From NCBI GenBank assembly GCA_038227875.1, contig JBBRPR010000024.1, positions 32,001 through 96,000 of the forward strand: a stretch of 64,000 nucleotides of DNA, in the 5' to 3' direction. The DNA is from Planctomycetota bacterium. GTDB taxonomy: Bacteria > Planctomycetota > SZUA-567 > H5-PLA8. Below are positions 41,151 to 46,527 of this stretch, one piece after another (within the stretch, counting starts at the first letter, position 1; the number at the start of each line of letters is the position of its first letter). The translations under genes and the position numbers were made by a program. Under the pieces are notes generated by a model, which had not been told where the DNA came from, searched no databases, and saw only the letters and a program-made list of their open reading frames with translations.

Positions 41151-42098
41151 ATGCCTGACACCCAACCTCTCGTTCTCGTCTTCCCCGGCCAGGGCGCGCA
41201 AGTCGTCGGGATGGGCAAGGATCTCGCGGCGGCGTTGCCTGAGGTCCGCGCGATGTTTGAGCAGGCGGATGCGCTGCTGGGAATTCCGCTCTCGAAGACG
41301 ATGTTCGACGGGCCTGACACGGCGCTGGTCGATACGGCGGTGCAGCAGCCGGCGCTGGTGCTGATCGGGCTGGCGATCAAGAAGGCGCTGGAAATTCGGC
41401 ACGGCATCACGCTGCCGGTTGTCGCGGCGGCGGGGTTGTCGCTGGGTGAATACGCGGCGCTCTCCGCGGTCGGCGCGCTGAAGTTTGAAGACGCGCTGAT
41501 GCTGGTCCGCAAGCGTGGCGAACTGATGCGCATGGCGTCAGAGAAAGTGCCCTGCGGCATGGCGGTGGTGATGAACCTCGCGCCGGAAAAAGTCCAGGCG
41601 GCGTGCGAGCAGGCGGCGAAAGAAACCGGCGGCATAGTCTCCGCGTCGAATTTCAACGGCGGCGGCCAGATCGTGATCGGCGGCGCGCTTGATCCGCTCG
41701 CGAAAGCCAGTGAGCTCTGCAAAGCGGCGGGCGCAAAGCGCGTCTTGAAACTCGCGGTGGCCGGCGCGTTTCACACGGCGCTGATGCAGCCGGCGTCGGA
41801 TGGCTTCAACCCGGTGCTCGACGCGGCGGCCATTCAGCCCGCGGGAGCGCCGGTCTACGCGAATGTCTCGGCCTCGCCGGTGCGAACGCCCGATGAAATC
41901 CGCGACGCGCTGAAGCGCCAGATCACCAGCCCGGTGCGCTGGGAGCAGACGATCCAGAATATCGTCGCGGCCGGCCACACGAAGTTTTTGGAGCTCGGAC
42001 CGGGCAGCACCGTCAGCAACATGATCAAGCGCATCGCACCGAACGCGGAATGCGCCGCGGTGTCGACGTGGGAACAGGTCGAGCAGTTTAAGTTGTAA
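41151..42098 (+). CDS. fabD: malonyl-CoA:ACP transacylase
   Basis: VFPGQGAQ, AGLSLGEY, VAGAFHT.LM, SPVRWEQT, ELGPG. Confidence 0.97.
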   Translation: MPDTQPLVLVFPGQGAQVVGMGKDLAAALPEVRAMFEQADALLGIPLSKTMFDGPDTALVDTAVQQPALVLIGLAIKKALEIRHGITLPVVAAAGLSLGEYAALSAVGALKFEDALMLVRKRGELMRMASEKVPCGMAVVMNLAPEKVQAACEQAAKETGGIVSASNFNGGGQIVIGGALDPLAKASELCKAAGAKRVLKLAVAGAFHTALMQPASDGFNPVLDAAAIQPAGAPVYANVSASPVRTPDEIRDALKRQITSPVRWEQTIQNIVAAGHTKFLELGPGSTVSNMIKRIAPNAECAAVSTWEQVEQFKL

Positions 42099-42115
42099 GA
42101 GGCTGTTGCGATAAA

Positions 42116-42636
42116 CTAGCGCGTGAGGAAACCCCAGCCGCCTTTCTTCAACTTGAAGGCGCTGATCGCGCTGTCCAAGTCGTCCTTGATCTCGATCATC
42201 TTATCCAACTGCGTGATTTTAAAGACGTCGCGCACGGCCGGGCAGACTTTGCAGAGCTTCAGGTCGCCCTTTTCTTCCTTGATCGCCTTGTAGAGCGCAA
42301 TGAACTGCCGCAGCACGGCCGACGACAAATATTGGACGTTGCCCATGTCGATGACCATCTGATCATGTACTGCTTCTTCACCAGGTCCATCAGCTGGCGG
42401 CCGAGCTCGTTGATGTTGGTTTCGTCGAGGATCCGGCTTTCCAGCAAGGTCACGACCGCGACATTGTCCGGCCCGACGATGGCCGAAAGCTTCGGCGGCG
42501 CTTTGCCGGGAATGAATTTCGAAGCCGGCTTCAACAGTGGCGGATGCAACGCGGGTTGTGCCGGCTGAGCCGGTTGACCGGGCTGAGGATTGGATCCCGG
42601 CGCTGGCGACGACGGTGGCACTGGATTGGTCGACAT
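42116..42636 (-). pseudogene. STAS-domain anti-sigma factor antagonist, split by a 1-nt deletion near 42360
   Basis: SRILDETNINELGRQL..KQYMI (ORF 42259-42636) continues as MVIDMGNVQYLSSAVL..GDLKLC..VFKITQLDK (ORF 42116-42358); restored by ATC A[A]G ATG. Confidence 0.85.
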
Positions 42637-42754
42637 AATTCTCCCTCGCGTGCGTGCTATTCTGGACTAACCGTTATACTAATTGACAACAACCTTGCAT
42701 CTCCACTTTAATCCAACATAATCCACAACGTTTCCAGTTTATAAGGGAGTGTGC

Positions 42755-44368
42755 GTGCGAACCCCTTCTTCCTGCAGCGAATCTAAATCATGGGTTACAC
42801 CGGTGCTGGTCTCAGCGCTGCTGTTTTCCATGGCTGGATGCAGCAGCGAAGACGACCGCCGCTACGAGCCGCCGCCGACCGTACCGCCTGTCACCCACAC
42901 GCCGATCACCGCGCCGGGCGTTGCCGGAGCGGCGTCGGCCTCCGCGGCGCAACTGGTTCCGCCGCTGCGCCGCACCGCGCAAACATCCGTCGGGGAGAAC
43001 GAGGGCTTCGGCGGACTTGAACTCGACGCGAAGCAGGACGTGATCGGTTTTCAGGCCACGAAGACGCCGGCCGGCACCGTCGTTCACGCCCACGGGCTGG
43101 TCGCTTCCGATGAACAATTGAAACCGGCGCTGGCGAAGCTGGCGGATCTCGGCTTCAAGGCCGATGGCGCGGCCGGTTCGCCGATTTGGACGATGACGAT
43201 TACAGCTGACGGCCGGCCTGCGTTCGACGTGCGGCTGGGCACCGAACTGCAGGCGAACGCCGGCCGCATCGACGCGACCGCCAACCGACTGCGCCGCAAC
43301 CAGCCGGGACGGCTGCTGAAGAACGATGACGCCACGGGTGGATTTCTGCCGCGCCGGCTCGTCTACACCGGCCAGTCCCTGGACATCGCCTTCGCTGACA
43401 CCACCGGCGATCCGCATTGGTTCATCGCCGTCAAGGGCGGCTATCTACGCGGCGGGCGTTTGTTCGTGGGAGAAGACGGCGCGTTGCGCATCGAAAAGTA
43501 CGAACTTGCGGCGCAACTTCCGGCGATTCCGAAGAACACCGAGCAGCTCAAAGTGAGCGCCGACGGCCGCGTGATCGCGCTGCGCACCGATGGCATCGCC
43601 GAAGCGCTGGGCCGGCTGCCGCTGATCAATATTCAGAACGAAAAGCTGACGCTTAACGAAGACGGCTTGGCGGTGCTCGACGGCGAACGCGCGCTCTCCT
43701 CCGATCTGGCGGCCAGCGAAGCGCCGGTGCGTGCCGGGCATCTCGAGTACCCCGCGCCCGATCGCAGCCTGGAACTAAAGAAACTCGGCGCGGAGCTCAG
43801 CGTCCGCCGCGCGCTCGAAGCGCTCTCGGTGACGCTGGCGAACCCGGCTGCCTCCGCCAAAGCCGGCGATGAACCGGTCGTGATCTACGCCGACCTGCCG
43901 TGGTCGGAACGCCATCTCAAAGCGCTGGGCATCCCCGTCGAACACAGCACGGGCCACACCACGCTGATGATGGACGGCGACCCGCGCAAACTCGCCGCCG
44001 CTCTGGCCAAGGTGCTGCAGGTCCTGCGCGTGCGCATGTCCCTCCACGATCAGAACCTGCGCAACGCCGATCGTCTCCGCGACGCCGACAACCGTCTCAA
44101 TCCCTACCGGCGCAAGACGCTGACCATCGACGCGCAGGGCGAAGCCGTCGAAGGCGACGACCCCGCGCCGTTTCCGAAAACGTTCAAGCCCGGCGATCCC
44201 AACGCCGACGGCGAAGGATTCATCAGCCTGCCCAACGTCAACCGCGCCGTCGAGACCGCCGAATTCCAGGCCGCGCGCGAAGAATATAAACTCGTCCGCG
44301 CCGCCGCCGAACGCCTTGAGCCCCACAGCATTTTCCCGGACCCGCCAGCGATACCGCAGAAGGAATAG
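42755..44368 (+). CDS. putative lipoprotein with tandem FlgG/F-like and FlgC-like flagellar rod modules
   Basis: LLFSMAG-C lipobox; YTGQSLDIAF..YLRGG..IP....LKVSADGRV..GHLE; NPYRRK..PGDPNADGEGFISLPNVN; GGGAG RBS. Confidence 0.75.
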   Translation: MRTPSSCSESKSWVTPVLVSALLFSMAGCSSEDDRRYEPPPTVPPVTHTPITAPGVAGAASASAAQLVPPLRRTAQTSVGENEGFGGLELDAKQDVIGFQATKTPAGTVVHAHGLVASDEQLKPALAKLADLGFKADGAAGSPIWTMTITADGRPAFDVRLGTELQANAGRIDATANRLRRNQPGRLLKNDDATGGFLPRRLVYTGQSLDIAFADTTGDPHWFIAVKGGYLRGGRLFVGEDGALRIEKYELAAQLPAIPKNTEQLKVSADGRVIALRTDGIAEALGRLPLINIQNEKLTLNEDGLAVLDGERALSSDLAASEAPVRAGHLEYPAPDRSLELKKLGAELSVRRALEALSVTLANPAASAKAGDEPVVIYADLPWSERHLKALGIPVEHSTGHTTLMMDGDPRKLAAALAKVLQVLRVRMSLHDQNLRNADRLRDADNRLNPYRRKTLTIDAQGEAVEGDDPAPFPKTFKPGDPNADGEGFISLPNVNRAVETAEFQAAREEYKLVRAAAERLEPHSIFPDPPAIPQKE

Positions 44369-44632
44369 CGGCCTTGCGGCCGAGGGGTCAGGGGTCAGAG
44401 GTGGGCGGGAGCAGGCGACATTCAGGCAGTTGCAGCGCGGTCGTGAAAAGTAGGCAGACGGCACCAGGCACCAGTCAGAAAGCAGAACGACCCTTAACTC
44501 ACACAGTACTCAACCGGGCGGAACGCATATTCATCAGGAGGACATCCCCACGTCTGACCCCTGGCCCCTGACCCCTGACCCCTCGGCCGTCAGGCCGCGC
44601 CACCTGCCCCCTGGCCTCTGGGCCGCAAGGCC
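44369..44632. repeat. inverted (AGGGGTC)n/(GACCCCT)n element
   Basis: GGCCTTGCGGCCGAGGGGTCAGGGGTCAGA ... TCTGACCCCTGGCCCCTGACCCCTGACCCCTCGGCCG ... GGCCGCAAGGCC. Confidence 0.8.
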
Positions 44633-46051
44633 ATGAGTCTACGCACGCAGATCTTCGTCTACGTCGTCGCGGTCATGGCCATTGTCTTCACGCTGGTCAC
44701 CGCGACGCTGTTGCCGGATCGCGTGCTGGCGCAGAAATTCAACATGGCGTTGGGGCGTGAGGCGGCTGTTTCGCTGCAATCGACGCTGGAGCAACTCAGC
44801 GCCGAACAGCGCGATGCGATGATCCGCCTGCATCCGCAACTGTTCCTCAAGGAAAACATTCTTGAAGGCTGGGTGCTGGCGAAAGAGACCGGGGAAGTGC
44901 GCGTCTGGTTTTTCCCGCAGGAAATCCGCGACCGCATCAGCGACGATTTTCTAAAAAATGCGAATGTCGACTACATCGGCCACTTCACCGCCAAGGATGG
45001 TGAAGCGCTGGTGCTCTACGCGCGGATCAACAGCCATCTGCTCGGGCCGTCGGTGGATCTCTGGCGCATTTTTCTGGTCATGACAGTGGGGACGATCCTG
45101 ATGCTGGTCGTGCTCTACTCGCTGCTGCTGCGGTTGATCGTCAAGCCCGTCGAACGGCTGGCGGCGGTCAGCAACTCACCGGCGGTCGCGCGCGGCTTGA
45201 TCCTGCAGGTGCCGCACACCGATCGCCGCGATGAAATCGGCGCGCTGGTCCGCGCGTACAACAAGATGGCGGGCGAAGTCAACGACCTGCGCCTGAACCT
45301 GGAGAAGCGCGTCACCGAAGCGACCAACAAGCTCGAAGCCGCGCAGCAGCAGATCGTCGTCAGCGAACGGCTCTCAGCCGCCGGGCGCATTGCGGCGGGC
45401 GTCGCGCACGAAGTCAACAACCCACTCGGCGGCATGATCAACGCGGCGCGCGCGCTCCGTGCCCGCGCCGCGCCGGGGCGGGACAGCGAGTACCTCGACC
45501 TGATCGTCGAAGGCCTCTCGCGCGTGCAGGCGATCGTGGCCTCGATGCTCCAGTTCTCGCGGCCGGTGCAGCAGTCCGGATCGGTGGACATCCGCGAAGT
45601 GCTCGACGGCGCATTGATGTTCTGCCGCTACCGAGTGACCGACATGAGCGTGACCGTGGTCAAAAATTACGATGCGCCGGGCACGCCAAGCTTCACTGTC
45701 GTCGCCAACCGCACCGAACTCGGCCAGGTCTTCCTGAACCTGATGGTCAACGCGCTCGATGCGATGGACGCCAAGGGAAAAGGCGCGGACGCGCACACGC
45801 TGACCTTGAACCTCAGCCGCGCGGACAAATCGATCGTCGTGAGCGTCTCCGACACCGGCATCGGTATGAAGCCTGAAGTAAAAGAGCGCGCGGGCGAATT
45901 CTTCTACACGACGAAGGGAGAAGGGAAGGGGACGGGGCTGGGGCTGGCGGTGGTGCAGCATATTGTGCTGCGACACAGCGGCACGCTGTCGATTGAGTCG
46001 ACGGAAGGCCAGGGGACGAAGGTGGTGGTGACGCTGCCGGCGGAGTTGTAA
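44633..46051 (+). CDS. HAMP-domain sensor histidine kinase (NtrB-like), no adjacent response regulator
   Basis: Two TMs, DEIGAL..AYNKM, AGVAHEVNNPL, QVFLNL..NA.DA, DTGIGM, FYTTK..GKGTGLGL. Confidence 0.95.
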   Translation: MSLRTQIFVYVVAVMAIVFTLVTATLLPDRVLAQKFNMALGREAAVSLQSTLEQLSAEQRDAMIRLHPQLFLKENILEGWVLAKETGEVRVWFFPQEIRDRISDDFLKNANVDYIGHFTAKDGEALVLYARINSHLLGPSVDLWRIFLVMTVGTILMLVVLYSLLLRLIVKPVERLAAVSNSPAVARGLILQVPHTDRRDEIGALVRAYNKMAGEVNDLRLNLEKRVTEATNKLEAAQQQIVVSERLSAAGRIAAGVAHEVNNPLGGMINAARALRARAAPGRDSEYLDLIVEGLSRVQAIVASMLQFSRPVQQSGSVDIREVLDGALMFCRYRVTDMSVTVVKNYDAPGTPSFTVVANRTELGQVFLNLMVNALDAMDAKGKGADAHTLTLNLSRADKSIVVSVSDTGIGMKPEVKERAGEFFYTTKGEGKGTGLGLAVVQHIVLRHSGTLSIESTEGQGTKVVVTLPAEL

Positions 46052-46098
46052 CGGGTAGTTTTGAATTGCGCTTTAATCCTTCTCGACAAGGTCCACCT

Positions 46099-46527
46099 AT
46101 GTCAACAAACGCATGGGTTTGCTATGAGTGCTCGGTTGGTGGTAAGCCAGCGTCGGTCCTGATCGATACATCCCTAAGATATAAAAACCCTGTTAGAGAA
46201 CTTCCCTGGCTATTGTGGCTTGGCATTTGGTGTAATCTGCCGTCGCCAAATTCATGGTGGCATCCGGATGAAAGTACGCGGTTGGACGGTATCGAGGACG
46301 ATCTAATCGCAAGCGTTAAGACTCTTAAGCCGGGTTTGGCGGTATATGTTTTGCGCATTTGTACGCCGGGTATGAGAGAACTTTACACCTACGTTGATTC
46401 TGCAAAAGGCCAGCAGGAAATTCTCGCAGCACTGAAACGTAAGTATGCTAACTATCGGATCGAAATTGATAGTACGGAAGACCCTGCCTGGAAGATATAC
46501 GACACCTATCTCCCGCCGAAGTACTAG
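46099..46527 (+). CDS. DUF695 family protein
   Basis: W..Y...GGKPASVLID, P.E...LD.IEDDL, G.RELY.YV, EDPAW..Y..YL; AT-rich. Confidence 0.7.
   Translation: MSTNAWVCYECSVGGKPASVLIDTSLRYKNPVRELPWLLWLGIWCNLPSPNSWWHPDESTRLDGIEDDLIASVKTLKPGLAVYVLRICTPGMRELYTYVDSAKGQQEILAALKRKYANYRIEIDSTEDPAWKIYDTYLPPKY

Follow-up and report, generated by a model that had tools for sequence, protein, structure and literature searches.

A lipoprotein that joins FlgF/FlgG-like and FlgC-like rod folds in a family of Planctomycetota

What would two flagellar rod folds be doing in a single lipoprotein, encoded away from flagellar genes? The question is raised by a gene at 42755..44368 of a 64,000-nucleotide stretch of DNA, here called the window as a whole, from a Planctomycetota bacterium (assembly GCA_038227875.1, contig JBBRPR010000024.1, positions 32,001 to 96,000). 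In the textbook view, rod, hook, and filament proteins pass through a type III system and do not fold until they assemble at the tip of the growing flagellum; the rod proteins FlgB, FlgC, FlgF, and FlgG are separate polypeptides lacking a Sec signal, which are exported by the flagellar type III system. The results presented below identify the lipoprotein and its relatives as a variant within the flagellar axial-protein superfamily that is unusual in export route, architecture, and distribution and that, judging from the genomes in which it occurs, appears to be kept independently of the flagellum.

Two rod-type modules in one chain

The gene and the parts of its product are listed here, with residue numbers that follow P0001 and are two higher than a count from the GTG at 42755.

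42755..44368, plus strand: coding sequence of the rod-tandem lipoprotein, 537 amino acids from a GTG start (open reading frame list and translation)
42743..42749, plus strand: Shine-Dalgarno-like AAGGGAG, five bases before the GTG at 42755 (read from the sequence)
42755..42841, plus strand: signal peptide and lipobox (…LLFSMAG-C), Cys codon at 42839-42841 (C31)
42842..43006, plus strand: Pro-rich low-complexity tether, residues 32-86, ending in a conserved PPLRR motif (low pLDDT, conservation)
43007..43213, plus strand: small N-terminal alpha/beta domain, residues 87-155, no fold assigned (secondary structure from models)
43214..43870, plus strand: FlgF/FlgG-like module, residues 156-374, with N-terminal helix, beta-rich D1 core, and C-terminal helix (VIA, Foldseek, profile)
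43871..43978, plus strand: small conserved insert or "pre-domain," ADLPW..HLKALG, residues 375-410, preceding the FlgC-like N-terminal helix
43979..44329, plus strand: FlgC-like module with both terminal helices, residues 411-527, the most conserved part (VIA, TIGR01395)

The open frame spans 42749-44368 (539 codons), with its stop at 44366-44368, and the GTG at 42755 is the likely start, giving an N terminus (MRTPSS...) that aligns with that of the closest full-length homologue, P0003 (MRSPFN...). An earlier note, made from the sequence, had read the product as a FlgG/F-like module at 43238-43830 followed by a FlgC-like module at 44010-44300. Both stretches lie within the modules as delimited here (43214-43870 and 43979-44329), and NCBIfam, PDB profile, and fold matches over both whole folds bear the reading out. 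The NCBIfam FlgC model TIGR01395 matches residues 422-514 (E 2.7e-9; profile positions 10-116 of 137), and the FlgF model NF009280 matches residues 199-319 (E 6.7e-8; positions 66-191 of 246). Compared with PDB sequences, the single sequence recovers Salmonella FlgF at E 1.7e-5 and FlgC at E 8.4e-5, values that become 1.7e-13 and 5.4e-7, respectively, with a profile of 25 family members; all eight matches of that profile at E <= 0.001 are FlgF, FlgG, FlgC, or FlgE. Both rod similarities exceed chance.

The AlphaFold2 model, built on the alignment, has a mean pLDDT of 79 and a pTM of 0.52. Its top FlgF/FlgG match in Foldseek is 7cbm_b (E 2.6e-9, 240 columns of the 248-residue chain), and FlgC is matched as 7cg0_i (E 6.4e-5). 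By VIA, residues 156-374 align with 8z5s_m 1-248 (Z 14.8, rmsd 5.3, 211 of 248 aligned) and the same module also with 6jf2_A (Z 14.2), while residues 411-527 align with FlgC 7cg0_j 2-126 (Z 9.5, rmsd 3.7, 115 of 127 aligned). As these alignments cover whole chains of FlgF/G and FlgC, the two modules represent whole rod subunits with both terminal helices, beyond the core domains. Conservation increases along the chain: mean pairwise identity is 26% in the N-terminal domain, the least conserved folded part, 35% in the FlgF/G-like module, 57% in the insert, and 68% in the FlgC-like module, where 29 of 117 columns are invariant. The YTG..D, RGGR, and GHLE motifs of the FlgF/G-like module are invariant, as are the signature motifs NPYRRK and GDPNAD..G...PNVN of the FlgC-like module; the FlgF-like N-terminal helix is poorly conserved in the 25-sequence alignment.

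No Pfam family matches the window protein even at E 10, Flg_bb_rod (PF00460), Flg_bbr_C (PF06429), and D1 included, which is consistent with the degenerate terminal motifs that the earlier note had remarked upon. The genome's own canonical rod genes do match PF00460 and PF06429. The TIGR01395 score of 37.4 bits lies below the curated FlgC cut-off of 102.1, and the scores on NF009280, TIGR02490, TIGR02488, and TIGR03506 (32.4, 17.0, 14.2, and 15.6 bits) are likewise all below their cut-offs (210, 178.5, 252.75, and 70.25). The lipoprotein falls outside the curated FlgC, FlgF, and FlgG families. In the ESM Atlas, the best score (0.86) belongs to a planctomycete D1-domain cluster, which serves as a lead only.

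The N terminus reads ...VTPVLVSALLFSMAG-C-SSEDD and continues into a Pro-rich stretch, and the lipobox and linker proposed from the sequence have held up, the Cys being invariant in 25 of 25 aligned homologues. A PROSITE-type lipobox pattern is satisfied by 21 of the 25, and three of the four failures are gene calls that start 10 residues or fewer from the Cys. The lipobox is also found in seven of nine further genomic copies; the copy in genome G091 has the signal peptide and no Cys. We infer from these N termini that the protein is lipidated and held at a membrane, facing the periplasm. Beyond the Cys, the tether is disordered in the model (pLDDT <50 at residues 29-41 and 43-87), and P72, R74, and R75 within it show little or no variation across the 25 aligned sequences. 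The N-terminal domain folded alone (pLDDT 68.6) has no clear structural relative among 48,161 chains, with a best Z of 4.4, and the idea that it is a ring-building motif was dropped, as no match in that set stood out. The insert, which forms a strand-helix-strand-strand unit in the model, recurs in short relatives without a FlgF-like module. An origin of the N-terminal domain and the insert by internal duplication is unsupported (hhalign probability, 4.5%).

The family and its relation to the flagellum

The lipoprotein had been described as an orphan, which is apt insofar as there are no flagellar genes at its locus, but it belongs to a conserved family present in 16 of the 17 genomes of the window's taxonomic family. 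A word-indexed search yielded 26 proteins of 328-570 amino acids, mostly 512-570, among them the window protein itself, in a gene call that starts at an internal ATG; the other homologues are 39-81% identical. Eleven of the 26 bear automatic JGI names such as "FlgC" or "FlgC/FlgF," and three homologues with NCBI names derive from Planctomycetota metagenome-assembled genomes. An exhaustive search of representatives gave 39 at E <= 1e-30 among 1.84 billion.

The draft genome that holds the window comprises 9.3 Mb in 176 contigs and is 88% complete; a full flagellar cluster is found on its contig C22, the window being on C24. C22 carries FlhA, a canonical FlgC (143.8 bits, above the cut-off), and four more rod C-terminal domain proteins, and its cluster holds its own FlgB, FlgC, FlgF, and FlgG; with this canonical set in place, the lipoprotein is an additional paralogue and not a replacement. 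The FlgC-like module shares 28% identity with the canonical FlgC of the same genome, and the genome's FlgF and FlgG show no significant BLASTP similarity to the lipoprotein. In a quick, unrooted maximum-likelihood tree of 123 FlgC-type modules over 138 columns, all 73 canonical FlgC sequences, cut from public loci, fall on one side of a branch (SH-aLRT 100, length 0.75) and all 50 chosen lipoprotein-type modules on the other, which argues, short of proof, for a single old origin of the exported type. On these three results, the idea that the gene is a young copy of rod genes of the same genome was rejected.

Among 401 sampled genomes of the phylum, 10 are matched by the family profile at E <= 1e-25, namely, the window genome, seven of the eight others of its family, and both genomes of a sister family, which have the short form described below. 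Within the window's taxonomic family, FlhA, Flg_bbr_C, and FliP each occur in the same 7 of the 17 genomes. Hence, 9 of the 16 carriers lack all three markers, and the one remaining genome has neither the gene nor the markers. The nine marker-less carriers have completeness values of 95, 93, 89, 89, 88 (a 6-contig assembly), 86, 86, 83, and 79%, and flagellar genes, where present, lie together on one or two contigs. When nine further copies of the gene were read through, eight proved uninterrupted from the signal peptide to the conserved C terminus; in the G066 copy the N-terminal half is out of frame. The copies in the marker-less genomes G237, G404, G403, and G328 are uninterrupted, and in three copies that had been flagged for an internal stop, the stop lies upstream of the true start. 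The folds, the invariant Cys, and the nine marker-less carriers together support the earlier suggestion that rod folds have been repurposed in a Sec-exported, lipid-anchored periplasmic protein. As a separate observation, the markers are all present or all absent together and split within genera (2 of 3, 1 of 2, 1 of 4, and 1 of 2), a pattern suggesting that the entire flagellar cluster was lost recently and more than once in this family.

Related proteins show several other architectures. Short lipoproteins of about 190-250 amino acids, among them P0055, P0058, P0065, P0068, P0069, P0078, P0081, P0088, P0089, P0093, L118:1414-2091, and L119:1405-2172, consist of only the insert and the FlgC-like module, and the lipobox GC is shared by all 12 of those aligned. 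Their TIGR01395 scores, 52-70 bits, stay under the cut-off, and neither Pfam nor NCBIfam has a family that includes them; the two genomic copies examined have no kinase next to the gene. A short-form profile run over the 401 phylum genomes finds mostly canonical FlgC, with matches that include the pre-domain limited to two families and two unclear open reading frames. In P0092, P0107, P0120, and P0166 (about 1000 amino acids), the series of N-domain, FlgF-like module, insert, and FlgC-like module is fused to long C-terminal HEAT repeats, and three of the four have a lipobox-like N terminus. P0064 (382 amino acids) shows the reversed order, with a signal, the insert and FlgC-like module, and then a FlgG-like part that scores 202.9 bits on TIGR02488. 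Large non-flagellar proteins also carry several D1 domains of the FlgE/F/G type. Two of them each contain three stretches matching the Pfam D1 model, P0075 (1246 amino acids) together with RCC1, PKD, and Lcl_C domains and P0077 (859 amino acids) together with a fimbrillin-like domain; P0079 (3219 amino acids) has eight matched stretches in the family-profile search.

The downstream kinase and other neighbors

Two features follow the lipoprotein gene in the window.

44633..46051, plus strand: histidine kinase with HAMP, HisKA, and HATPase_c domains (Pfam)
44383..44593, no strand assigned: dispersed repeat, inverted runs GGGGTCA / TGACCCC bracketing about 150 bases, between the lipoprotein and kinase genes

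The kinase has two hydrophobic spans (by eye, at about residues 6-27 and 144-166) that flank a loop of about 115 residues. In four other genomes, the gene immediately after the lipoprotein gene encodes a full-length orthologue (45-57% identity), so that, with the window genome, the kinase has this position in 5 of 13 testable genomes; among the remaining carriers, two have a contig that ends just after the gene and one has the gene split over two contigs. In the same four relatives the next gene encodes an NtrC-type regulator with receiver, sigma-54 interaction, and Fis-type helix-turn-helix domains. The flanks of this triad differ, with a Ser/Thr kinase and a PD40/PDZ gene in one group and LexA in another, and its recurrence beside different flanks points to a functional unit rather than an inherited neighborhood. 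The triad is also found in three genomes that lack the flagellar markers (G298, G402, and G091). The kinase was initially taken for an orphan; this is true of the window genome, but the regulator is adjacent in the four relatives, and its orthologue in the window genome lies on contig C4 (70% identity to the relatives' adjacent regulator; next best, 44%). The early suggestion of a link between lipoprotein and kinase gains from the finding that the same kinase follows the gene amid different flanks. Where the kinase is missing, the lipoprotein gene sits between housekeeping genes (LexA, RlmN).

Across 15 loci compared, no gene is a universal partner, the recurrent neighbors being the kinase (5), the regulator (4), LexA, RlmN, and the Ser/Thr kinase, and in none of the 15 do flagellar genes adjoin the lipoprotein gene. 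Similarly, the window's contig has no FlhA, FlgC, Flg_bbr_C, Flg_bb_rod, or D1 match besides the lipoprotein gene itself, in agreement with the statement of the earlier note that the 64 kb contain no other flagellar gene. A search for a sigma-54 promoter (TGGCAC-N5-TTGCW) upstream of seven family genes gave one 9-of-11 match at one locus and none in the window; a simple sigma-70 scan found 0 sites, and terminator-like sites numbered 6 versus 4.7 expected. A further sigma-54 activator-type gene (G000:C22:62940-64016, minus strand) stands directly beside the canonical FlgC gene (C22:64402-64809) in the flagellar cluster of the window genome; over residues 14-372, its product shares 40% identity with the regulator of the triad. 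This gene probably encodes the actual regulator of the flagellum, as opposed to the lipoprotein-linked one.

The upstream neighbor on the minus strand, a STAS gene, had been named together with the kinase; both are indeed present, but the STAS gene is not conserved (0 of 5 public loci) and is frameshifted. At 42116-42636 of the window, a one-base difference near 42359-42360 breaks it into two overlapping frames. In contigs of a related strain (runs X2 and X4), an extra T behind 42359 would keep the frame open; the probable source sample has a contig that reads as the window does. The dispersed repeat accounts for the long spacer of 265 bases before the kinase gene. A 68-base probe from it (44538-44605) has 125 blastn matches in the genome, depth at 44538-44678 is about 400 versus 14, and the sample's metagenome contigs break there; the repeat may be a small mobile or REP-like element.

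Possible roles of the rod tandem

Taking these findings together, we tentatively favor, at not quite an even chance, the proposal that the tandem is an exapted periplasmic module that acts here together with the kinase encoded downstream and, by way of that kinase, with a sigma-54 activator, and that has a kinase-independent role in addition. In this scheme the lipoprotein would leave the cytoplasm by Sec, with type III export no longer used and the flagellum not needed, and the lipid anchor would hold it on a periplasm-facing membrane. The strongly conserved FlgC-like module could provide the key contact. In the window genome and at least four relatives, the lipoprotein would then act as the periplasmic partner of the kinase, which would signal through the NtrC-type sigma-54 activator, encoded on another contig in the window genome. 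As some relatives have the lipoprotein without the kinase, a kinase-independent role has to be assumed too, and this is probably structural or self-associating.

Several observations weigh against this proposal. In 8 of the 13 testable genomes the fetched flank has no kinase, and a whole-genome search of four of these eight (G328, G154, G066, and G237) found no orthologue of the kinase's sensor half. Conversely, G283 (91% complete) has the kinase and regulator with no lipoprotein gene upstream or elsewhere (G283:C84:124845-129248, locus L130; kinase 47% identical over its full length, sigma-54 regulator 64%). The periplasmic loop of the kinase (residues 28-143) is poorly conserved, with 5 invariant columns across 6 orthologues. 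The pTM of the model leaves the packing of the modules uncertain. With regard to independence from the flagellum, a lost contig could hide flagellar genes in a single incomplete genome; this cannot plausibly explain their absence from 10 of 17.

The main rival, which is compatible with our favored proposal and to which we give a distinctly smaller but still appreciable chance, is that the protein builds a self-assembling periplasmic structure by head-to-tail or ring stacking, i.e., a lipid-anchored non-flagellar rod, strut, or scaffold, with the kinase link being secondary. It is recommended by the full-length alignment of both modules with rod subunits, which takes in the two terminal helices used in rod polymerization, and by the invariant FlgC signature motifs, which are kept even in the short relatives devoid of a FlgF-like module. 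The retention of the gene in genomes without the kinase and the occurrence of the same tandem fused to HEAT repeats in relatives of about 1000 amino acids point in the same direction. However, the motifs of PF00460 and PF06429 go undetected even at the most permissive threshold used, the FlgF-like N-terminal helix is poorly conserved, and a single gene without conserved assembly partners is thin for a machine.

A role as a flagellar accessory is doubtful. In this view, the protein would mimic the rod from within the periplasm and, where cells are flagellate, would cap, chaperone, plug, or dock onto the basal body. Such a role would account for the homology to two proteins that are neighbors in the rod, for the full flagellar cluster of the window genome, and for the sigma-54 two-component system that follows the gene in four relatives, given that a passage in PMC7064773 describes this regulator class as controlling rod and hook genes in polar flagellates. 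While the homology fits, the distribution does not: FlhA, FliP, and Flg_bbr_C are missing from more than half of the carriers (9 of 16), the triad persists in three marker-less genomes, and the gene never adjoins flagellar genes in any locus compared. The related idea of a plug or cap for flagellar relics after ejection was set aside in view of the nine carriers without flagellar markers.

A bolder combination of ideas, which we consider slightly less probable again, is that the Sec-exported, lipid-anchored tandem polymerizes via its terminal helices into a small non-flagellar periplasmic rod or ring, whose state of assembly would be read by the kinase/sigma-54 system as a measure of envelope geometry or integrity. 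If true, bacteria that discarded the flagellum would have kept an axial-protein structure, and it would be the first one to be assembled without any type III machine.

Least credible by far is an artefact or relic, that is, a chimeric assembly or a pseudogene left from duplicated rod genes, as might be suspected from the draft state of the genome and the frameshift in the adjoining STAS gene. One 4779-base contig from the probable source sample spans the gene, covering 42000-44582 with zero differences, and a second contig of that sample's run spans 44559-46200, the break between them being the dispersed repeat. This contiguity, together with the same architecture in 16 of 17 genomes of the family, excludes the chimera that the earlier note had raised as a danger, and the uninterrupted reading frames, with 50 invariant columns across sequences 39-83% identical to the window protein, likewise contradict a pseudogene; both were rejected.

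The presence of two whole rod folds in one Sec-type lipoprotein that survives repeated loss of the flagellum indicates that the axial fold is reusable elsewhere. The family offers a tractable case for how an axial protein folds without its machine, for what the conserved FlgC motifs bind without a rod, and for how planctomycete envelopes gained new periplasmic parts, and the link to a kinase and sigma-54 regulator provides a testable handle on function. On a practical level, automatic FlgC/FlgF names could make aflagellate genomes seem to retain flagellar genes. A full-text literature search found no paper on Sec-exported or lipoprotein rod homologues.

Among known systems, the closest likenesses are to the rod proteins themselves. 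The lipoprotein shares the whole FlgC fold (TIGR01395; Salmonella 7bin_V, 7cg0_j) in residues 411-527, and in the profile alignment this module keeps the FlgC motifs QNL.NA, PYR.K, and G.P.AD..G.V..PNV. Whereas FlgC is a free, type III-exported subunit, the module here is internal to a lipoprotein that also occurs in genomes without flagellar markers. With FlgF and FlgG (8z5s_m, 7cbm_b, 6jf2_A) the likeness is again one of whole-chain fold, and YTG..D, RGGR, and GHLE correspond to rod motifs; scores nevertheless remain below the curated cut-offs, and the Pfam Flg_bb_rod, Flg_bbr_C, and D1 models do not match. In comparison with FlgB, FlgC, FlgF, and FlgG generally, the lipoprotein is set apart by its N-terminal hydrophobic segment and lipobox Cys and by having both rod modules within one chain. 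The rod/hook D1 core is reused repeatedly outside the flagellum, and the lipoprotein resembles the non-flagellar D1 proteins (PF22692) in this respect. However, those proteins reuse the D1 core only, while in the lipoprotein family complete rod subunits are retained, both terminal helices included, and a FlgF/G-like module is paired with a FlgC-like one.

The proposed mode of action recalls NlpE with CpxA and RcsF with the Rcs phosphorelay, lipoproteins that pass envelope information to kinases. The parallel lies in a Sec/lipobox lipoprotein tied to a membrane kinase with a periplasmic loop; there is no sequence or fold relation to NlpE or RcsF, and the link here rests on gene order in 5 of 13 genomes. 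As in FlgSR, FlrBC, and FleSR, a kinase and an NtrC-type sigma-54 activator are genetically tied to rod-type proteins. In contrast to those systems, the upstream regions of the lipoprotein genes lack a sigma-54 promoter consensus, the kinase has two membrane spans and a HAMP domain, and the system is found in genomes without markers of the flagellar type III secretion system.

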